From: a virus
DNA length: 6,099 nt
IMG/VR virus record: IMGVR_UViG_3300002170_000109
Location: 1 to 6,099 of that record
Reading direction: 5' to 3' (one strand)
Shown here: positions 1 to 6,099 of the stretch, piece by piece
Layout of the letters: every line of letters starts with the position of its first letter
Position numbering within the stretch: the stretch's first letter is position 1
Program-made: the position numbers and the translations under genes
Notes under the pieces: generated by a model
The model's input: only the letters and a program-made list of their open reading frames with translations
Databases searched by the model: none
Told to the model about the DNA's origin: nothing

Positions 1-93
1 ATATAACAGCTAGTTTAGCAGCTTCTTTTATCTTTTCAATGATTAAAAAATATATCAAAAAATAAGATTAAAACCTCTTTTTCAATATATTAT
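1..93. repeat. Terminal redundancy, copy 1 (identical to 6007-6099); circularisation overlap
   Basis: Base-by-base comparison shows position n equals position n+6006 across all 93 nt. The copy contains the 3' end of the 31-aa ORF (stop TAA at 63-65) and the left arm of the 64-126 hairpin. Confidence 0.97.
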
Positions 94-126
94 TACGAAT
101 AAATATATTGAAGAGGTTTTAATCTT
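64..126 (+). terminator. Long imperfect hairpin (~29 bp stem, loop ACG) followed by a T-rich tract. It may be an intrinsic terminator after the 31-aa ORF and/or an ssDNA structural element.
   Basis: AAGATTAAAACCTCTT (64-79) is the exact reverse complement of AAGAGGTTTTAATCTT (111-126). The inner segment CAATATAT (83-90) pairs with ATATATTG (103-110), with a further 4 bp around loop 95-97. The inner GAGG stem is followed by TTTTAATCTTT. Confidence 0.5.
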
Positions 127-153
127 TAATAAAAAATATAAAGGAGCGTCAAG

Positions 154-441
154 ATGAATACAGATGTAATTATCTTAGGAGCACGTCCGTATGACTTTGA
201 AGATAATCAAACTAAGAAACAGGTGTCTGGTGTTTCTGTCTGGGTTCTACCAAAAGAAACTGATGATTCGAATGTAAACGGATTGCTACCAGTTAAGTAT
301 ACGTTAGATAAGGAGCAGTACAAAGAGATTGCGCAAATCCCATTGCCAGCTCAAGCTGAATTGCTACTTAGCTATAATATCACAAGTAAACGAGTAAAAT
401 TTAAAGCATTTCAAAATATTGAGCCGATTGAGCTGGCCTAA
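154..441 (+). CDS. 95-aa small soluble protein, putative ssDNA-binding protein (gVp-like)
   Basis: Strong SD AAAGGAG lies 7-8 nt upstream of ATG 154. The protein has no TM segment. Its size and its position upstream of the coat genes match inovirus gene V. The segment LPVKYTLDKEQ resembles PVLVKITLDEGQ of Ff gVp as I recall that sequence. Confidence 0.5.
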   Translation: MNTDVIILGARPYDFEDNQTKKQVSGVSVWVLPKETDDSNVNGLLPVKYTLDKEQYKEIAQIPLPAQAELLLSYNITSKRVKFKAFQNIEPIELA

Positions 442-521
442 TATCAATCCGTAGTGACGAAGATTTACTTGAAAATCGTCGGAACGAGGATTCCTCTTGA
501 CGTAGTCAAGATAAAAAAAGA

Positions 522-1010
522 ATGAATATGGAAGAAAAAACTAATACAGTAGACTTATCACAAATTCAAGAAAAAATTGATTCTCAAAATAAAATTCTCG
601 AGACCATTCGAGATGAAATTCAAAAAGCTAACGAACGAGAAAATAATGAATTAGCTGATAAAAAGAAACAAAAAGAGGAAGCAGATAAAAAAGAACAAGA
701 GCGGATTAAAAATGGTGAGTTAACAACTGAAGAGCAAATTTTGAAAGAACTTCAATCCATTTCATCATCTACCTCAAATCAAAATGAAACACTAAATCAG
801 TTTGTTGATGATCTTATGAAAAAAGTTGAATCTGGTAATACATCATCATCAGAAGCTAGTGAGCAGTTAAAAACATTGGTCGAAATTAATCAAAATTCAT
901 CTCATTTTTCCGAAACGCAGACCAATTTACTTGCCACGTATGCTATTGTTATCATTCCTGTTTTTGTAGTGTTAGTTTTAATCTATAGGTTTTTCCGACA
1001 GTTTATTTAA
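522..1010 (+). CDS. 162-aa tail-anchored membrane protein with a charged coiled-coil N-terminal region; function unknown (candidate minor virion or assembly protein)
   Basis: The open frame starts at ATG 522 (a second ATG is at 528) and the SD is weak. The N-terminal ~130 aa are rich in K/E/Q/S with heptad-like character. A single C-terminal TM segment (LLATYAIVIIPVFVVLVLIY) is followed by the basic tail RFFRQFI. The gene sits immediately upstream of the major coat gene, where Ff carries gVII/gIX. Confidence 0.55.
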   Translation: MNMEEKTNTVDLSQIQEKIDSQNKILETIRDEIQKANERENNELADKKKQKEEADKKEQERIKNGELTTEEQILKELQSISSSTSNQNETLNQFVDDLMKKVESGNTSSSEASEQLKTLVEINQNSSHFSETQTNLLATYAIVIIPVFVVLVLIYRFFRQFI

Positions 1011-1062
1011 TTTTATGGTTGGTAGTGGGTGGGAAAATAAGCTAAAAAGGGGGGAATTGCTA

Positions 1063-1203
1063 ATGATTTCAGCAGAAGCGGTTCAAGGTGTTGTTTCTTC
1101 AATCACAAGCGAAATCTCAACAGCTGCGCCTGCAGGTATGACCATTCTTGGTGGTATTCTTGGCGTTAAAGTTGTTGTTCGTTTGATTAAGAGCTTCATT
1201 TAA
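1063..1203 (+). CDS. 46-aa major coat protein (pVIII-like, Pf3-type with no signal peptide). The ORF track extends to ATG 1015, but 1063 is the better-supported start.
   Basis: SD AAAAAGGGGGG (1045-1054) lies 8 nt before ATG 1063, whereas ATG 1015 has no SD. The product is MISAEAVQGVVSSITSEISTAAPAGMTILGGILGVKVVVRLIKSFI. It has an acidic/polar N-terminus, a Gly/Ala-rich hydrophobic core and a basic C-terminus (K, R, K), which is the canonical inovirus coat architecture. A strong terminator follows immediately. Confidence 0.7.
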   Translation: MISAEAVQGVVSSITSEISTAAPAGMTILGGILGVKVVVRLIKSFI

Positions 1204-1209
1204 CTAATT

Positions 1210-1237
1210 AAAGATGCTTCGGCATCTTTATTTTTTT
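1210..1237 (+). terminator. Rho-independent terminator directly after the coat gene
   Basis: Stem AAAGATGC (1210-1217), loop TTCG, stem GCATCTTT (1222-1229), then A plus T7 (1230-1237). The next gene starts 11 nt later at 1248, so its expression would need read-through. Confidence 0.85.
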
Positions 1238-1247
1238 AGGGTGAATT

Positions 1248-2960
1248 ATGAAAAAAATATTTGCGAAGTTAAAAATTATTTTGATGATTTTTTTGGTTTT
1301 ATTTACATTTTTCCATAAACCTAAGCCTGCTAAGGCAGATGCTTTAGTAGCGGGTGGAGGAATGTATTTGATTTCGTTAAATCCTGCCATTTTGCCGATT
1401 GCAGTTATTGGCTTGATTGCTTGTTTGTTAGTTGGTTTTACTATTTCTAATTGGGATGAAGTAACAGCTTTTGGTAATGCAGTAAATCAAGAATTACTGG
1501 CTTTAGGTGGTTCTATTGGTGATTATGTTCACGGTACCAGTGTCAAAATTGATTCAACATTAAAACAGGCTATTTTTAACGCTTATGGAAAAACAGGAAA
1601 AACATTACCTAAATATACAAAAACGGTAGATTATAGCGGTGGAACAGTTGTTCATACAGGATTAATCAATGGAGCTGATATTTATGGTGCTACTGACATA
1701 TTGGATTATCTAAACACAGATTTTAGGTGTTTTGGTAATGTAGTAAACGGTGTTGGTGATAAAAGTAATCTTTATATAAAAAGCGGACAATCAGAAAAGG
1801 TTGGTACTATTTATTATTTGGATTCTATCACTGTTACTGTTACTGTTTTACCTACCAGTGCAGAACTTGCCTTTTTTGATTTAACTGGTTTTTCTTCAAC
1901 AGATTTAAAACGAGATAGTTCAGGAAAAGTGATAGAAGCTAGTTCAACATTATCTGCAAAGACTTTAGAGAGCTTCTTGGGAAGTAGTGTTGAATTACCT
2001 TACTCACTTGGAATGGCTTCAACAGCACCCGTTACAATTACAGATGTTACAATTCCAGAATTAGGGATTGGTAGTAATGTAAGTAGTGTTTCTACTTCCA
2101 CGTTAAAAAGTACAGCAATCAAAAAAGAGAGAGTTAATGAATATATGGATACAGCATTTCCTACAAGTACTTCTGTCAAGTTTAAAGAAGATACCGATGT
2201 GCGAGGAATTACTATATCAGATTTAGCAAATGTTTCAAATGGTAGCATTACTAATGAGCAAGCTAAAGCATTAGACGACATTCAGGCAAATGCTGTTTCT
2301 GAAAATACTGGTTCTTCTTCGTCCGCAGGATCTTCAAGTGGTTTTTGGTCGTTGTTATGGGATTGGCTATTAAAAATTTTAAATGCTATTTTGGGTATTC
2401 CCTCAGCAATTTTAGACGTTATTAAAGTACTATTTGCGACTGTTACAGATTGGCTTGCCAAAATTTGGCAGGGAATTTGTGACTTGAATATTGGTTCTAC
2501 AATCGTTGATTGGTTATCAAAACTTTGGACGGGTATTTGTAGTATTCCTAGTGCTATTGTTGCAGGAGTTACGGGCTTTTGGGAAAAGTTACTTGAGTTT
2601 GTTGAATCAATTGTTAAAGCAATTGACGGCTTTAATCAAGCAATCGCAAATGCAATCACTGGTGCTTTAGAATGGTGTTTTGGACTTGATGAAACTTGGT
2701 TAAGAGGTCGTATCGAGTCACTTAAAAAAACTTTTGATTCAAAATTTCCAGCTTTAAAACCTATTAATTATAAATTTAGTGATAAAGGTAGTTTTGATGA
2801 TTTAACAATGACTGTTCCTTATTGCGGTCAAGTGACTGTGGTTGAATCAGCGATAGTGATGAAGTATGGTTCAGTACTTAAAAATTTCTTGAGAGCATTT
2901 TTCTATTTAATTACAGCACTATTTTTCTTTAAGAGATTTCACAAGGTGGCAGAGGATTAA
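1248..2960 (+). CDS. 570-aa pIII-like minor coat / host-adsorption protein
   Basis: It is the largest ORF and lies right after the major coat gene. The N-terminus looks like a signal peptide (MKKIFAKLKIILMIFLVLFTFF...AKADA), followed by a second hydrophobic segment at aa 38-67. A Ser/Thr-rich central region is followed by a Gly/Ser linker NTGSSSSAGSSSG (nt 2307-2342). Trp-rich ~20-aa repeats span nt 2343-2657. The C-terminal hydrophobic anchor is FLRAFFYLITALFFFKRF. This layout parallels Ff pIII: receptor domains, a G/S linker and a C-terminal membrane or virion anchor. Confidence 0.6.
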   Translation: MKKIFAKLKIILMIFLVLFTFFHKPKPAKADALVAGGGMYLISLNPAILPIAVIGLIACLLVGFTISNWDEVTAFGNAVNQELLALGGSIGDYVHGTSVKIDSTLKQAIFNAYGKTGKTLPKYTKTVDYSGGTVVHTGLINGADIYGATDILDYLNTDFRCFGNVVNGVGDKSNLYIKSGQSEKVGTIYYLDSITVTVTVLPTSAELAFFDLTGFSSTDLKRDSSGKVIEASSTLSAKTLESFLGSSVELPYSLGMASTAPVTITDVTIPELGIGSNVSSVSTSTLKSTAIKKERVNEYMDTAFPTSTSVKFKEDTDVRGITISDLANVSNGSITNEQAKALDDIQANAVSENTGSSSSAGSSSGFWSLLWDWLLKILNAILGIPSAILDVIKVLFATVTDWLAKIWQGICDLNIGSTIVDWLSKLWTGICSIPSAIVAGVTGFWEKLLEFVESIVKAIDGFNQAIANAITGALEWCFGLDETWLRGRIESLKKTFDSKFPALKPINYKFSDKGSFDDLTMTVPYCGQVTVVESAIVMKYGSVLKNFLRAFFYLITALFFFKRFHKVAED

Positions 2961-2962
2961 AG

Positions 2963-3214
2963 ATGATACAAGGTATTTTAAATGTTTTTTTCAATGTCTG
3001 CGAATGGTTTCTTGGACTGTTTCCGACAATCACAATTTTTAGTGATATTTCCGAAAGTGTAGCTGGCATATATAGTTATCTTTATGCCGTTTCAGCTATC
3101 GTCCCTGTTTCAGATTTTTTTATCTGTATTGGTTTGATTAGTGGGTTCTATGTAAGTTTATTTTTAATAAAATTATCAAATTGGATTTTGCATAGAATAC
3201 CGATTTTGAATTAG
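2963..3214 (+). CDS. 83-aa polytopic hydrophobic protein, pVI-like minor coat protein
   Basis: SD AGAGGA lies 6 nt before ATG 2963, which is 2 nt after the stop of the preceding gene, suggesting translational coupling. There are about three hydrophobic segments. The position between the pIII-like and pI-like genes matches gVI. Confidence 0.5.
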   Translation: MIQGILNVFFNVCEWFLGLFPTITIFSDISESVAGIYSYLYAVSAIVPVSDFFICIGLISGFYVSLFLIKLSNWILHRIPILN

Positions 3215-3223
3215 AAAGTGAAT

Positions 3224-3272
3224 AAAAAAAGACGTAAACAGTGCTTGCTGTGCAAGCCTGTTACGGCTTTTT
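3224..3272 (+). terminator. Intrinsic terminator-like hairpin between the pVI-like and ATPase genes
   Basis: An A7 run (3224-3230) precedes the structure. The outer stem CGTAAACAG (3233-3241) pairs with CTGTTACG (3258-3265), with one bulged A. The inner stem GCTTGC (3243-3248) pairs with GCAAGC (3252-3257). The sequence GC plus T5 (3266-3272) follows. Confidence 0.65.
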
Positions 3273-3284
3273 ATGAGGGTTATA

Positions 3285-3992
3285 ATGAAAAAAGGTAAAC
3301 TTGCAAATCGATTTGAAGATTTATCAAATAAACCATTTATTTTAAAATTTATCTATTTTTTTAGTAGTCTGTTTTATGATTTCGCTTATCGCTTTAAAAA
3401 TAAAAATGATTTTAAAGAATTTGGGTTAACTTTATACTGCGGTCGTCAAGGTGCAGGAAAAACAATGGCTATGACAGAATATTTGGAGCGTATGCGAAAA
3501 AAATATCCAAATTGTATTATTTGTACGAATTACGGATATTCCCACGAAAATTTTCCGATGACGGATTGGAAGCAAATTTTCGAGGTTAGAAATGGTGAAA
3601 AGGGTGTGATTTTCGCTATCGATGAAATTCAAAATGAATTTAATTCGTCTGCTTGGAAATCTTTTCCAGAGGGACTTTTGGCAGAAGTTACACAACAGCG
3701 AAAGCAAAAAATTAAAATTGTTGGGACATCTCAAGTATTTACTCGTGTGGTTAAACAATTACGAGAACAGACTTTCGAAGTAGTTGATTGCAAAACGTTA
3801 TTAGGTCGATGGACTTTTGAGAGAGCATTTGACGCAGAAGAATATAATGCTGTTGCTGATAGGCCAGAGGCAAAAATGAAATTACATAGATTATGGCGTA
3901 AAAATTTTGTCCAGTCAAAACGGTTACGTAATTTGTACGATAGTTATGCTAAAATCGAAAAAATGTCTCGTGAAGTTCTAGAAAATAATTGA
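3285..3992 (+). CDS. Zot/pI-like P-loop NTPase (filamentous-phage assembly ATPase). The maximal ORF starts at 3273.
   Basis: Walker A is GRQGAGKT (nt 3441-3464) and Walker B is VIFAIDE (nt 3606-3626). The SD GAGGG lies 5 nt before ATG 3285. An N-terminal hydrophobic stretch PFILKFIYFFSSLFYDFAY precedes the ATPase core. The position after the pVI-like gene matches gI/zot in inoviruses. Confidence 0.7.
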   Translation: MKKGKLANRFEDLSNKPFILKFIYFFSSLFYDFAYRFKNKNDFKEFGLTLYCGRQGAGKTMAMTEYLERMRKKYPNCIICTNYGYSHENFPMTDWKQIFEVRNGEKGVIFAIDEIQNEFNSSAWKSFPEGLLAEVTQQRKQKIKIVGTSQVFTRVVKQLREQTFEVVDCKTLLGRWTFERAFDAEEYNAVADRPEAKMKLHRLWRKNFVQSKRLRNLYDSYAKIEKMSREVLENN

Positions 3993-4017
3993 ATATCGCT
4001 TCCAAAAGTGGTACACT
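3989..4017 (+). promoter_or_regulatory. Candidate sigma-A promoter for the RHH gene, with extended -10
   Basis: The -35 is TTGAAT (3989-3994), followed by a 17-nt spacer ending in TGG, then the -10 TACACT (4012-4017). An inverted repeat AAAAGTG-gta-CACTTTT (4004-4020) overlaps the -10. Confidence 0.4.
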
Positions 4018-4042
4018 TTTCTGTAGATAGAAAGGAGCTTTT

Positions 4043-4225
4043 ATGGTAGTATCTGTAGATTCAAAAAGATTTCAAGTTACACTTCGTAAGAAAACTTTTG
4101 AAAAATTAGAGCAGTGTTCTGATTGGAAATCAATGTCTAAATCACATATTATCGAAGCTGCTTTAATTGACTATCTCGATAAGAACGGGTTCTATGATGA
4201 TGAGGAACGTTTGTTAATTTTGTAA
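4043..4225 (+). CDS. 60-aa ribbon-helix-helix (CopG/Arc/MetJ-type) transcriptional regulator
   Basis: SD AAAGGAG lies 5 nt before ATG 4043. The pattern is RHH-like: a beta strand (KRFQVTLRK), helix A (KTFEKLEQ) and helix B (SKSHIIEAALIDYL). The small size is typical of phage or plasmid repressors. Confidence 0.7.
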   Translation: MVVSVDSKRFQVTLRKKTFEKLEQCSDWKSMSKSHIIEAALIDYLDKNGFYDDEERLLIL

Positions 4226-4247
4226 ATAATTTTTAGGCAAAAAAATA

Positions 4248-4282
4248 AGCCAGTTGGGGAACTGGCTAGGGTGTTGTTTTTT
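4248..4282 (+). terminator. Hairpin with a downstream T-tract after the RHH gene (non-canonical spacing)
   Basis: Stem AGCCAGTT (4248-4255), loop GGGG, stem AACTGGCT (4260-4267). T6 lies at 4277-4282, which is 9 nt after the stem. An A-run (4239-4245) upstream could extend the pairing. Confidence 0.45.
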
Positions 4283-4317
4283 CTTCTTTCAACTAATTAT
4301 AACACACCTGCAAACTT

Positions 4318-5358
4318 TTGCCAATTTTGCTATACAGAAAGTGGTGTGTTTTTTTGGTTGTAGAAAAACGTGAACGTATTAGTTGGAAAAGTAAAAAATT
4401 TGGAAAGATTGTTAATGAGTTCGATTTTTTAACCGCCCTATCTAATAGGCGGTTAGATTCCCAAAGTTTGGGAAAACGGGTGAGTTTACATTGGAGTATT
4501 GACCGAATTACGCTTGTTGGTGAAATTAAATATTTTACTGATTTTGATGTAGATGGTTCTGAAATTATTCGTGGCTTTGATGATGTTTTTGAGAAACTTT
4601 GTCAAAAAGGTCATGCTGAAGAAGTCGGCAATGGTTGGGCTATTAAGGACAAGTATAATGAAAATATAGCCTATGCTGAAATTTTAAAATATGATGAAAA
4701 TAAAGCTCGTATCGATTTCAATCCGAACCGATTAGGAAATTTTTTAGAAGATGACTTGAAAGCATTCTTTAAAAAACTATTGATTAATCCGCATTTCTCA
4801 CGTGCTGACGTAGCTTGTGATTTGATTAATATTCCTGACGAGGCAATTACTCAGTATACAATTGTAGCTCCAGTGAAATCTGTGCTTTATCATGATAAAG
4901 TGGGTAAACTGGAAACTGCTTATTGGGGTAGTCGTTCTAGTGAACGTCAAGTGCGTCTTTATAATAAGTATGTTGAACAAACTCGAAAAGGTCAAATCAT
5001 TCAAAAAGAAATTGAGTCTTGGTGGCGTTTGGAAATGCAATTGCGCCGTGATAAGGCAAGCAATTGGATCAACATTGTTCGGGAAACTTTATCGGAGTTT
5101 AAATCACCACTGTTTTTTCCAACAGACATGAAAGTAACAGATAAAATTATGCTTACAGGTCTTTTAAGTGATGAAAGTCTGTGGGCGGAGTTATCAAAAA
5201 ATAGTCGTACTAAATATAAAAAGTTATTGAATGAGTTAACTCAAGATGATGAATTAACTCTTGCACTTGTTGAATCGTTTTCAGATTGTTACCTAGACTT
5301 AAAAAATGAACTTGATACGTGGTTAATAGGTTTAGATGTAACGTCTAGCGATGTATAA
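4318..5358 (+). CDS. rep: Rolling-circle replication initiator, Rep_trans (pT181 RepC/RepD-like) family. The 5' end is uncertain because there is no in-frame ATG before codon 240.
   Basis: Conserved blocks are typical of the Rep_trans family: HWSIDRITLVG near the N-terminus, RADVACD (nt 4801-4821), YWGSRSSERQVRLYNKY (nt 4921-4971) and WWRLEMQLRRDKA. The maximal ORF begins at TTG 4318. Alternative starts are TTG 4354, TTG 4468 and GTG 4480. None has a convincing SD. Confidence 0.8.
   Translation: MPILLYRKWCVFLVVEKRERISWKSKKFGKIVNEFDFLTALSNRRLDSQSLGKRVSLHWSIDRITLVGEIKYFTDFDVDGSEIIRGFDDVFEKLCQKGHAEEVGNGWAIKDKYNENIAYAEILKYDENKARIDFNPNRLGNFLEDDLKAFFKKLLINPHFSRADVACDLINIPDEAITQYTIVAPVKSVLYHDKVGKLETAYWGSRSSERQVRLYNKYVEQTRKGQIIQKEIESWWRLEMQLRRDKASNWINIVRETLSEFKSPLFFPTDMKVTDKIMLTGLLSDESLWAELSKNSRTKYKKLLNELTQDDELTLALVESFSDCYLDLKNELDTWLIGLDVTSSDV
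4430..4455 (+). promoter_or_regulatory. Putative plus-strand (double-strand) origin nick hairpin, pT181-like
   Basis: The sequence is AACCGCCCTATCTAATAGGCGGTT (4431-4454). Stem AACCGCC pairs with GGCGGTT, TAT pairs with ATA, and the loop is CTA. From memory, the pT181 IR-II nick region is AACCGGCTACTCT/AATAGCCGGTT. That gives 19 of 24 positions identical, including TCTAATAG, and one stem base pair is swapped compensatorily (G-C to C-G). Confidence 0.6.
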
Positions 5359-5399
5359 CAAATGTATATCAAAGTAAAACAATTGTGTAGGTGAGTGTA

Positions 5400-5759
5400 T
5401 TGGCAAATATAAAAGGTTATCAGATTAATATACGTGTTTCTGTACAAGAAAAAGAAGCACTTGATAAAGAAGCAGAAAAACAAGGTTTAAAGCGTTCGGA
5501 ATACATACGCACTAAGCTCTTTTCAAAATCTGCTACAGAAAGTGTACAAAACGATATACAAACGTATACAGATAATATTGAGAAGCTTTTTGAGATGAAT
5601 CAGCAATTAATCAAGAATGATAAAATCAAAAGTGAAACAATTAATAATTTGACTAAGCTTTTTAGCGAAGAACAAAAGAAAACTCTTGCATTAACACAAG
5701 AACTTGATTTTGAAAAAAATAAAAATATTTGGCAAAGGATATTTAAAATAAAAAAATAA
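5400..5759 (+). CDS. ~119-aa protein with an N-terminal ribbon-helix-helix (MobC/CopG-like) domain and a C-terminal coiled coil; putative DNA-binding regulator or replication accessory protein. The maximal ORF starts at GTG 5391.
   Basis: SD AGGTGA (5389-5394) lies 5 nt before TTG 5400. The RHH signature is YQINIRVSVQEKEALDKEAEKQGLKRSEYIRTKL. The C-terminal half is K/E/Q/N-rich and helical. Confidence 0.6.
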   Translation: MANIKGYQINIRVSVQEKEALDKEAEKQGLKRSEYIRTKLFSKSATESVQNDIQTYTDNIEKLFEMNQQLIKNDKIKSETINNLTKLFSEEQKKTLALTQELDFEKNKNIWQRIFKIKK

Positions 5760-5777
5760 AATGCATACATGTTCTGT

Positions 5778-5831
5778 TATATGAATAAAAGGGTCTAGTG
5801 CTTTTAAGCACTAGACCCTTTTATTCATATA
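5778..5831. terminator. Perfect 26-bp-arm inverted repeat (2-nt centre). Likely a bidirectional intrinsic terminator for the rep-RHH unit, and a candidate ssDNA hairpin (packaging signal or minus-strand origin).
   Basis: TATATGAATAAAAGGGTCTAGTGCTT (5778-5803) is the exact reverse complement of AAGCACTAGACCCTTTTATTCATATA (5806-5831). The GC-rich core GGGTCTAGTGC/GCACTAGACCC is followed by TTTTATT. Confidence 0.7.
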
Positions 5832-5853
5832 CATTAGGAGATAAAGCTAGCCA

Positions 5854-5881
5854 TTGCTATAGTATATATATTATCTATTAT
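5854..5881 (+). promoter_or_regulatory. Candidate promoter for the structural-gene transcript
   Basis: The -35 is TTGCTA (5854-5859), followed by a 16-nt spacer and the -10 TATTAT (5876-5881). The 22-bp palindrome lies immediately downstream, in an operator-like position. The context is AT-rich, so a chance match is possible. Confidence 0.3.
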
Positions 5882-5907
5882 CTAGTATCTAGTATATATA
5901 CTAGATA
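5860..5907. repeat. Iteron-like cluster: three direct TATCTA heptamer-spaced repeats, one inverted copy, a 22-bp perfect palindrome and an 11-mer direct repeat
   Basis: TATCTA occurs at 5872, 5879 and 5886 (period 7), and its complement TAGATA at 5902-5907. TATCTAGTATATATACTAGATA (5886-5907) is its own reverse complement. TAGTATATATA occurs at 5860-5870 and 5890-5900. Confidence 0.85.
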
Positions 5908-5975
5908 ACTCCTTTTAACCCTTGGAACGATATTATCAATATAAAAAAAATATAAAAAAGAAAGGAGATCTAAAA

Positions 5976-6071
5976 ATGTTATTAAACATTTTAGATTATT
6001 TGAGAGATATAACAGCTAGTTTAGCAGCTTCTTTTATCTTTTCAATGATTAAAAAATATATCAAAAAATAA
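5976..6071 (+). CDS. 31-aa hydrophobic peptide with a basic C-terminus (candidate pVII/pIX-like minor coat protein or small membrane peptide)
   Basis: SD AAAGGAG (5961-5967) lies 8 nt before ATG 5976. The product is MLLNILDYLRDITASLAASFIFSMIKKYIKK and the stop is TAA at 6069-6071 (equivalent to 63-65). The 64-126 hairpin follows. The ORF is missing from the supplied track only because it is short and spans the circular junction. Confidence 0.5.
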   Translation: MLLNILDYLRDITASLAASFIFSMIKKYIKK

Positions 6072-6099
6072 GATTAAAACCTCTTTTTCAATATATTAT
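6007..6099. repeat. Terminal redundancy, copy 2 (identical to 1-93)
   Basis: Exact 93-nt match to the window start. Confidence 0.97.

Follow-up and report, generated by a model that had tools for sequence, protein, structure and literature searches.

Inoviruses have been catalogued across bacteria as 5,964 distinct genomes (Roux et al. 2019, PMC6813254), and many circular inoviruses associated with Firmicutes are documented (Ino-01 to Ino-08 in Sugimoto et al., PMC8530359; Billaud et al., PMC9723715). Such phages, for example the porcine "Inovirus sp." (MT1352xx; PMC9723715), the bajarodino viruses and Ino-01 to Ino-08, are circles of 4–9 kb with a rolling-circle replication (RCR) protein, Rep, and no secretin; their Zot stands alone without the C-terminal domain of proteobacterial pI, and the gene of a small coat protein with a transmembrane (TM) segment is followed by a long minor-coat gene. 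Related Firmicutes inoviruses are abundant in purified fractions of virus-like particles, and filaments have been seen by electron microscopy (PMC9723715). Here we describe IMG/VR virus record IMGVR_UViG_3300002170_000109, a stretch of 6,099 nucleotides (positions 1 to 6,099 of the record; hereafter, the window), which shares all of these features of organization and to which the phages found in the particle fractions are distantly related.

We consider it likely that the window is the complete replicative-form genome of a non-lytic, inovirus-like filamentous phage with single-stranded DNA (ssDNA), built as a chimera of a morphogenesis module and a replication module together with a variable slot. 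The best explanation is, furthermore, that the element is maintained like a plasmid, as an episome, in streptococci of the S. infantarius / S. bovis-equinus group. The morphogenesis module is assigned by homology for the ATPase and the coat protein and by architecture, position and conservation for its other genes; the replication module is assigned by homology and motif, from which we infer its mechanism. In terms of the marks by which inoviruses are recognized (Roux et al. 2019, PMC6813254), the window has a Zot-type ATPase, a gene for a small coat protein (within ~30–90 aa (amino acids), with one hydrophobic segment) upstream of a long minor-coat gene, and a small circle (within 5–20 kb) with a replication initiator and co-oriented genes.

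Like the Ff phages (M13/fd/f1), the window encodes on one strand an RCR Rep, a candidate ssDNA-binding protein, a coat protein followed by a terminator, a candidate adsorption protein, a small hydrophobic protein and a pI/Zot-like ATPase. It differs from Ff in having no pIV secretin and no identifiable pVII/pIX, in its ATPase, which appears to be anchored at the N-terminus and has no periplasmic domain, in its coat protein without a signal peptide, and in its predicted origin, which lies inside rep and not in a large intergenic region. As in the pT181/pC221 plasmids, on the other hand, Rep belongs by sequence to the same fold family, the predicted origin is in the 5′ part of rep, and the rep leader has a predicted antisense promoter, a terminator and alternative terminator folds; the window is unlike these plasmids in having an extra CopG-like ribbon-helix-helix (RHH) gene upstream of rep, as in replicons of the pMV158 type, and in having its replicon tied to a virion module.

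Circularity, gene set and host

Bases 1–93 of the window are exactly those of 6007–6099, and no prefix longer than 93 nt is repeated as a suffix. Such an exact terminal repeat cannot have a chance origin and is what an assembler usually leaves when its template is a circle or a tandem array. The unit has 6,006 bp and a G+C content of 32.4%. A homologue 95% identical to the ATPase of the window (P0001) carries the name of Streptococcus infantarius subsp. infantarius at NCBI and is encoded on 24 contigs, all of 10 kb or less. Eight of these contigs (L004–L011), which come from ENA, Logan metagenomes and one S. infantarius isolate assembly, were compared with the window; they are units of 6.06–6.08 kb with ~90% nucleotide identity to the window over ~5 kb, and each closes with a terminal overlap of its own (30–141 nt) and is broken at a different position. 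Among them, L005 stands as a contig by itself in the isolate assembly GCA_023927045.1 (isolate contig QINU01000045.1, subsp. infantarius). A ninth relative (L039) is also ~90% identical and has the gene order of the window without a terminal overlap. In all nine relatives, the run from the NikA-like gene through a variable intergenic region to the 95-aa (amino acid) gene is contiguous, by which the gene order equivalent to that across the window junction is confirmed; the junction sequence proper falls in a region unique to the window, and the relatives confirm the order only. The window is a complete circular 6,006-bp genome, and its host is most probably S. infantarius or a related species. 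The genes and other features on which the following sections draw are:

1–93 (= 6007–6099), no strand assigned: terminal redundancy, the assembly overlap closing the 6,006-bp circle
154–441, + strand: 95-aa protein, candidate ssDNA-binding (gVp-like)
522–1010, + strand: 162-aa acidic membrane protein
1063–1203, + strand: 46-aa major coat protein
1209–1237, + strand: intrinsic terminator directly 3′ of the coat gene (fold z-score −3.6, 0/200 shuffles)
1248–2960, + strand: 570-aa pIII-like protein
2963–3214, + strand: 83-aa pVI-like protein
3285–3992, + strand: 235-aa Zot/pI-like ATPase
4043–4225, + strand: 60-aa RHH protein
4354–5358 (open reading frame open from 4318), + strand: 334-aa Rep
5391–5759, + strand: 122-aa NikA/MbpA-like RHH protein
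5976–6071, crossing the circle junction, + strand: 31-aa hydrophobic peptide

The genes for the coat, the ATPase, the 95-aa protein, the RHH protein and the small peptide each have a ribosome-binding site (RBS) ahead of them. For the ATPase, 3285 (235 aa) is the most probable start in place of 3273 (239 aa), and for Rep it is the TTG of 4354 (334 aa). When the window was compared with three relatives, the ratio of nonsynonymous to synonymous substitution rates (dN/dS) was 0.03–0.13 for every testable core gene, including those for the 46-, 60-, 83- and 95-aa proteins; these are therefore real genes. Neither an integrase, a transposase nor a secretin was found among the window proteins (list of open reading frames (ORFs), Pfam and PHROG scans).

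An earlier note on this DNA, made from its letters, had described a circle closed by the 93-nt overlap, with co-oriented genes in an inovirus order and no pIV secretin. The exact repeat and the eight permuted circular relatives bear out the circle, the conserved ORFs under purifying selection are all on the + strand, and the Pfam and PHROG scans agree on the secretin. The gene order was essentially right, except that the 162-aa gene between the 95-aa and coat genes and the 60-aa RHH gene between the ATPase and Rep genes had been passed over. Its reading of the element as an inovirus, with the 239-aa (here 235-aa) protein as a Zot-like ATPase, the 46-aa protein as the coat and Rep as a member of Rep_trans, is largely correct and is supported by the Pfam and structural matches of the first, a profile match of the second to the coat of Thermus phage PH75 and the Pfam score of the third, all of which are given below.

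Virion and assembly proteins

The ATPase scored 23.0 bits against the Pfam family Zot (PF05707), of which the gathering score is 20.3, and other P-loop families stayed under their cut-offs. Walker A (GRQGAGKT) and Walker B (AIDE) motifs are present, and G53, G58, K59, D113 and E114 are invariant in 44 homologues. Its AlphaFold (AF2) model, with a predicted local distance difference test score (pLDDT) of 84.4, found entries named "Zonular occludens toxin [Inoviridae sp.]" as the best matches in BFVD (expectation value (E) 5.8e-11), and other viral P-loop ATPases came far behind in this structure search. More than 1,300 homologues were found, most of them on contigs of 5–7 kb. The model opens with a long, Phe/Tyr-rich helix at aa 18–38 (PFILKFIYFFSSLFYDFAYRF) and has no C-terminal periplasmic domain. 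This helix is probably a membrane anchor, as judged from the model; its high content of Phe and Tyr kept it below the threshold of a simple Kyte-Doolittle scan. Such an architecture agrees with the stand-alone Zot domain of Firmicutes inoviruses (PMC8530359) and also with pI-like proteins in general, in which one or two TM domains are placed at the N- or C-terminus (PMC6813254).

The coat protein of 46 aa lacks a signal peptide, and its hydrophobic core is flanked by an acidic N-terminus and a basic C-terminus (RLIKSFI); its gene is preceded by the RBS GGGGGG and shows a dN/dS of 0.06. Pfam Phage_Coat_B was matched at 21.7–21.9 bits (cut-off 23.5), and five of 13 family members came near that threshold. 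A profile was built from the 13 homologues recovered from related loci and searched against 177,635 PDB sequences, and the best match was 1HGV, the major coat protein of the Thermus inovirus PH75, which is also 46 aa long (E 7.4e-5). We take PH75 and Propionibacterium phage B5 to be grouped as Paulinoviridae; the pI of B5 was beyond detection by tblastn. In the Ff phages, a terminator after the coat gene favours the expression of the genes upstream. By analogy, the terminator at 1209–1237 would let the genes upstream of it be expressed above those downstream.

The 570-aa protein opens with a Sec signal peptide (…PAKA/DA). A Ser/Gly linker leads from its variable N-terminal half to a C-terminal half that is conserved, hydrophobic and rich in Trp, and an anchor lies at the C-terminus. 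The N-terminal half (aa 74–336, nt 1468–2255) has just 25–55% nucleotide identity to the ~90% relatives, with dN of ~0.75 in the variable part, whereas its flanks are conserved (dN/dS 0.06–0.10). A variable N-terminal half between conserved flanks is the pattern expected of a receptor-binding domain, and we regard the 570-aa protein, on architecture and position, as a pIII-like candidate for adsorption and for the terminal cap. PHROG matches of this protein were limited to hydrophobic tape-measure segments. As a separate observation, replacement or divergence of the N-terminal half suggests swapping of receptor-binding domains among phages that are otherwise nearly identical. The 83-aa protein encoded next is highly hydrophobic and is 52–96% identical across the streptococcal relatives (dN/dS 0.05), with no family match in the scans of the family libraries; its position and hydrophobicity are those of a pVI-like, minor virion or membrane protein, as which we tentatively label it by analogy.

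The gene for the 95-aa protein stands first in the structural operon (dN/dS 0.05). Its AF2 model (pLDDT 78.5) consists of a β-barrel and one helix. Foldseek gave no significant match: the top PDB entries were OB-fold DNA binders (best E 0.097, Stn1/Ten1), and gVp was not recovered. In BFVD, the best matches (E 2e-3) were unnamed viral proteins of 81–99 aa. It is plausible from the model that the 95-aa protein is a gVp-like, ssDNA-binding protein with an OB-like fold; the label of gVp-like given previously thus keeps the fold in its favour, while the missing structural significance leaves it weakly supported. By its sequence, the 162-aa protein can be placed as a conserved member of the morphogenesis module. 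It is acidic and of low complexity with a C-terminal TM helix, and its identity among streptococcal relatives ranges over 31–98%; a weak SMC-like match hints at a coiled coil, and Pfam, PHROG and NCBIfam gave no informative family match.

Replication module, cis-elements and the accessory slot

Rep scored 33.7 bits against Pfam Rep_trans (PF02486, cut-off 29.6), with part of the domain covered, and matched the staphylococcal RepDE/RepDC structures 4CWE/4CWC with E of 8e-20, in which RLYNK of the window stands opposite RIYNK. Also, Rep is ~53% identical to those of 2–4 kb cryptic plasmids of Enterococcus faecium, S. suis and S. agalactiae, and its dN/dS is 0.06. By sequence, Rep can hence be assigned to the rolling-circle initiators of the Rep_trans / pT181-RepC/RepD family, and its predicted catalytic Tyr is presumably that of RLYNK (Y215 of the 346-aa ORF). 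The cis-elements around it, and those of the structural operon, are:

4431–4474, + strand: predicted double-strand origin inside rep, from the pT181 IRII match and conservation
4238–4324, − strand: candidate countertranscript RNA (ctRNA) with promoter and terminator
4269–4355, + strand: putative rep leader attenuator, from the different folds predicted for the whole leader and for its truncated form
92–153, + strand: presumed promoter region ahead of the structural operon, ~82% identical to relatives and including the RBS AAGGAG
446–514, + strand: two-hairpin element between the 95-aa and 162-aa genes, from conservation and covariation

The origin was located by matching the IRII sequence of pT181 against the window, and 4431–4454 was the best match. 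This IRII-like hairpin, AACCGCC-CTATCTAATA-GGCGGTT, lies in the 5′ part of rep and is adjoined by an IRIII-like palindrome, TTCCCAAAGTTTGGGAA, at 4458–4474. By analogy with the nick position of pT181, the nick is predicted after T4443 in the loop CTATCT^AATA. The hairpin is conserved in all of the ~90% relatives and in four more distant phage clades, and the loop of one of these clades (L036), TACTCTAATA, is identical to that of pT181. In the rep genes of E. faecium plasmids, the hairpin stands at the same codons and the adjoining palindrome differs in sequence, as would be expected if the IRIII-like palindrome is the Rep-specific binding site. No origin was found when the intergenic regions were compared with E. 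faecium Rep_trans plasmids by short-word BLAST. The sequence therefore points to an origin within rep, after the manner of pT181, rather than in the intergenic hairpins, where it had been assumed to lie. Given that the predicted nick is on the + strand, the displaced (packaged) strand would have the sense of mRNA, as in known inoviruses.

Copy control seems to combine a protein and an RNA. The 60-aa protein is CopG/Arc-like (Pfam RHH_1, 20.7 against a cut-off of 20.5 bits; PHROG Arc-like repressor, 4e-6), and its gene, with a dN/dS of 0.03, adjoins rep in all Rep_trans clades; it probably represses the replication operon. The best promoter match in the window (11/12 plus the TG extension) is TTGGCA-17-TGnTATAAT (4324–4296) on the minus strand, and it is followed by a terminator at 4267–4248 with a T-run, so that the predicted antisense RNA is ~50 nt long (fold z-score −3.0). 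In the fold of the full leader, a preemptor GGGTGTTGTT (4269–4278) pairs with AACACACC (4301–4308); in the leader without the ctRNA target, AACACACC pairs instead with GGTGTGTT plus T7 (4343–4355) to form a terminator immediately 5′ of the rep start. These leader folds have modest z-scores (−1.4 to −1.6). Conservation in five clades extends to the hexamers of the promoter, the stem of the terminator (where changes are compensatory) and the layout of the attenuator, and Rfam gave nothing at the rep leader even with a permissive threshold. By analogy with pT181, the leader would be of its attenuation layout, to which the CopG-like RHH gene is added. In another sister clade (L038:5289-5379 and L038:1-100), the leader segment with the antisense −10 box (TTATTATAACACACCTTGATTTTTTTTT) is tandemly duplicated, which could be a variant of copy control.

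The structural operon is presumably driven from 92–153; the intergenic DNA flanking this region cannot be aligned with the relatives. The spacer of 86 nt between the 95-aa and 162-aa genes, furthermore, is at least as conserved as the coding sequence around it (0.95 identity in the bin of 454–512 against ~0.87–0.97 in neighbouring coding bins). At 446–514, it folds into a long imperfect hairpin and a second hairpin (DNA fold z-score −2.3), and RNAalifold gave 22 pairs, eight of them with compensatory changes, over four lineages. Counterparts are at L004:1207-1300, L031:5089-5181, L036:4617-4710 and L038:1475-1569. The element is absent from the clades with a Rep_1 replicon (see below), where the spacer is 9–23 nt, and no Rfam family matched it with the permissive threshold. 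A covariance-model search over 31 loci including plasmids and Rep_1 phages recovered only the lineages used to build the model; because of this restriction, the comparison between plasmids (as expected of a single-strand origin) and Rep_1 phages (as expected of a packaging signal) does not discriminate. In the minimal sister genomes, 446–514 is the only sizeable structured non-coding region, for which it is tentatively proposed as a minus-strand origin and/or packaging signal.

The region of 5391..6006/1..91 is an accessory slot, since sister genomes of 5.2–5.5 kb have the Rep_trans module and lack both the NikA-like gene and the accessory intergenic region. A block of RHH gene, hairpins and small peptide had been taken as part of the inovirus blueprint; this block is in fact a variable region, absent from the 5.3-kb sisters. 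The NikA-like protein of 122 aa (Pfam NikA-like, 38 against 27 bits) has a low-complexity, Lys/Glu-rich tail and no relaxase partner, and NCBIfam matches to MbpA and to antitoxins were all below cut-off; it is probably a regulator. Three structured features lie in the slot or at its border:

5778–5831, no strand assigned: perfect 26-bp inverted repeat (−41 kcal/mol, z-score −11.5)
5860–5908, no strand assigned: AT-rich nested palindromes with TATCTA repeats, unique to the window
64–126, + strand: long hairpin (~27-bp stem) directly 3′ of the small-peptide gene (z-score −8.1, 0/200 shuffles)

The first, which has an A-run before and a T-run after it, is shaped like a bidirectional terminator and cannot be aligned with the ~90% relatives. 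Of the third, only the right arm is within sequence common to the relatives, and it is probably a terminator or an ssDNA structure of the accessory region. The 31-aa peptide is hydrophobic and has a basic tail, and its gene is preceded by a strong RBS (GAAAGGAG); we rejected a 49-aa ORF from TTG 5922 and kept the version from ATG 5976, which has this RBS and a size like those of its counterparts. In the ~90% relatives, the slot holds non-homologous hydrophobic peptides of 32–38 aa. Their genes come after the NikA-like gene and are followed by a bidirectional terminator (A-run, GC-hairpin, T-run) and then by a direct repeat, 20–25 nt, of the gene start (L004:540-760, L008:1744-1960, L010:810-1010). 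A peptide gene, a bidirectional terminator and a direct repeat are the layout of type I toxin-antitoxin systems of the par/Fst kind. The 31-aa peptide matched NCBIfam CD_typeI_toxin at 17.3 bits (E 0.005, cut-off 60), and a promoter-like site is found on the minus strand inside its gene (6045–6018). Pfam Fst_toxin had no match among the small peptides of the window and its relatives, and neither had the antitoxins of Rfam, of which the permissive hits were at chance level and driven by the perfect hairpin. The peptide may be a type I toxin and not part of the virion; a role as a virion protein of the pVII/pIX type was downgraded in view of the non-homologous peptides of the ~90% relatives and the sisters without the slot.

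Taken together, the following cycle can be proposed. Rep would nick the + strand at ~4443/4444 in the IRII-like loop, with the IRIII-like palindrome as its specific binding site, and rolling-circle replication would displace the + strand in mRNA sense. Copy number may be controlled in the manner of pT181 and pMV158: the ~50-nt countertranscript would bind the rep leader and switch it to the terminator ahead of the rep start, and repression of the replication operon would fall to the 60-aa RHH protein. The displaced ssDNA would be coated by the 95-aa OB-like protein, and the two-hairpin element of 446–514 might serve as a minus-strand origin and/or packaging signal. The coat protein would insert into the membrane without a signal peptide, and the terminator after its gene would raise the expression of the first three genes above that of the others. 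The N-terminally anchored Zot/pI-like ATPase could then power assembly and extrusion across the membrane with no secretin, and the filament would be capped by the 570-aa protein, with its hypervariable receptor-binding half, and the 83-aa protein, both of which would mediate adsorption and entry. The tail-anchored 162-aa protein may be a further conserved component of assembly or of the virion. The accessory slot would add the NikA-like RHH regulator, large hairpins and a small peptide, possibly a type I toxin that stabilises the episome.

Relatives, rival readings and significance

The relatives L004–L011 and L039 and the sister clades L031–L038 have the core genes, the Rep_trans replicon, the origin and the leader in common with the window, as an element at the level of species or genus. 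Against L004–L011 and L039, the parts that are the window's own are the N-terminal half of the pIII-like protein and the accessory intergenic cassette (5732..91). None of the window proteins tested, the ATPase among them, is recorded as an exact sequence in the public collection. Outside this lineage, the same block of six genes (p95-p162-coat-p570-p83-Zot) is kept in the same order in elements of S. suis, S. thermophilus, S. marmotae and S. ovuberis; these include the Streptococcus "plasmids" pSt08 (AJ239049), pHN38 (CP116605), S. marmotae CP015197 and those of S. suis with 5.6–6.9 kb, as well as streptococcal IMG/VR records (IMGVR_UViG_2703718976 and others) and isolate contigs of S. suis and S. 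ovuberis. They are like the window in size class, circularity and host genus. They differ in their Rep, which is the unrelated Rep_1 (PF01446, pC194/pUB110-type, E ~1e-85) instead of Rep_trans, and have neither the 60-aa RHH gene, the ctRNA/attenuator leader, the 446–514 element nor the NikA-like gene. Protein identities between the two groups run from 31 to 78% over the block and are 70–78% for Zot (54% in pSt08), 48–55% for the 95-aa protein, 43–47% for the coat, 52–76% for the 83-aa protein and 32–38% for the pIII-like protein, and nucleotide similarity is limited to the Zot region (~70%).

CP015197, CP116605, AJ239049 and other PLSDB records are filed as non-mobilizable plasmids, and pSt08 encodes a DNA adenine methylase and a type II restriction endonuclease in addition. 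The Zot-bearing "plasmids" of Streptococcus are probably replicative forms of filamentous phages that have been misfiled. More distant Zot relatives (49–56%) are in large chromosomal contigs, namely of Enterococcus phoeniculicola (889 kb, L025), Enterococcus sp. (310 kb, L026) and a metagenome-assembled genome of Anaerotruncus (166 kb, L024); integrated prophage relatives hence exist in Enterococcus and Clostridia, unlike the episomal streptococcal clade. A fragment 78% identical to Zot of the streptococcal type also appears in an assembly of Rhizobium lusitanum, on a contig of 395 bp with a coverage of 0.9 (L028), and is almost certainly a cross-contamination of that assembly.

Among 50,697 GenBank phage records (INPHARED), blastn with the whole unit gave no match and tblastn with Rep detected no homologue, nor was a close one of Rep found in IMG/VR; the nearest Zot in the GenBank phage records is 33–36% identical, or up to 42% on a partial match. 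A review of the phages of the S. bovis/equinus complex in 2025 lists no filamentous phage for this group, and our literature searches found no description of one from streptococci or from the complex. Even so, the novelty that the earlier note had attached to the window was overestimated: close relatives, with 77–78% identity in Zot, are present in IMG/VR and PLSDB, and Firmicutes inoviruses have been documented (PMC6813254, PMC8530359, PMC9723715).

Several points weigh against the window being a filamentous phage. Evidence of virions, of ssDNA or of infection was found neither for this element nor for its streptococcal relatives, which the public records call plasmids. The Pfam match of Zot is just 2.7 bits over the threshold and covers part of the domain, and that of the coat falls below the gathering score. 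The labels gVp, pIII and pVI come from position, size, topology and conservation, with no significant homology. Also, the nick site, the ctRNA and the attenuator are drawn by sequence analogy from pT181, and the 446–514 element, whose candidacy as a minus-strand origin and/or packaging signal is a guess of low confidence, is missing in one of the Rep_trans clades (L034/L035).

As a rival reading, the window could be a cryptic plasmid of the rolling-circle type with a degenerate or domesticated filamentous-phage block on board, which is inherited vertically and has ceased to make infectious virions; the Zot-like ATPase and the membrane proteins would then have some different function, or the element would be a helper-dependent satellite. 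The replication module is indeed indistinguishable from those of 2–4 kb cryptic plasmids, relatives were deposited as non-mobilizable plasmids in closed Streptococcus genomes, the restriction-modification system of pSt08 is what an ordinary plasmid would bear, and virion evidence was not found in the searchable literature. Nonetheless, the six morphogenesis genes are intact, even those for the 46- and 83-aa proteins, and are under strong purifying selection, with dN/dS of 0.03–0.13; the block is kept together across the unrelated Rep_trans and Rep_1 replicons, as expected of a functional virion module; and the hypervariability of the pIII-like protein, which is typical of a receptor-binding protein under selection for host range, would be odd in a non-infectious plasmid. 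We thus regard such a plasmid as an unlikely alternative. That the window is a tandem integrated prophage or a misassembled repeat, and not a free circle, is very improbable: while the terminal overlap by itself cannot separate a circle from a tandem array and the distant Zot relatives of Enterococcus and Clostridia (L023–L027) do lie inside large chromosomal contigs, the window has no integrase or transposase, its best match to a dif(SL)-like XerS site has 11 mismatches in 31, equal to shuffled sequence, the streptococcal relatives in isolate assemblies are all separate contigs of 5.4–6.2 kb with overlapping ends or closed circular records, and every contig examined with the 95%-identical Zot or the related Rep is of 10 kb or less.

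The reading of the window as the genome of a filamentous phage is accordingly preferred. A broader proposal, namely that the streptococcal Zot "plasmids" are a clade of fully functional filamentous phages of a Gram-positive coccus, in which assembly and extrusion take ~8 genes with a stand-alone, N-terminally anchored Zot ATPase and no secretin, whole replicons of the pT181 and pC194 types are swapped and the covarying hairpins of 446–514 act as a novel minus-strand origin or packaging signal, is more tentative, and we give it slightly less than even credence.

The group to which the window belongs is already catalogued and has never been cultivated, thousands of such genomes having been predicted since 2019. 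What is added here is a replicon of the pT181 type with its predicted origin and copy control located, the swapping of replicons in one lineage of a virion module, and a covarying cis-element. That a single virion module occurs with two rolling-circle replicons of unrelated types cleanly exemplifies the exchange of modules between phages and plasmids, and the predicted nick site in rep, the putative countertranscript/attenuator and the covarying hairpin element are concrete cis-elements open to testing. In public databases, the relatives are labelled as plasmids or their products as hypothetical proteins; recognizing them as replicative forms of inoviruses corrects the plasmid and phage annotation of Streptococcus, including the dairy species S. 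thermophilus and the pathogen S. suis. To our knowledge, nearly all that has been learnt of filamentous phages of Gram-positive hosts comes from sequence, and these phages have to leave a cell with a thick wall and no outer membrane. This element and its relatives reside in culturable and tractable streptococci, with one S. infantarius isolate available. If the broader proposal on the streptococcal clade is true, S. thermophilus, S. suis and S. infantarius would provide a genetically tractable system for understanding how a filament crosses a thick peptidoglycan wall.

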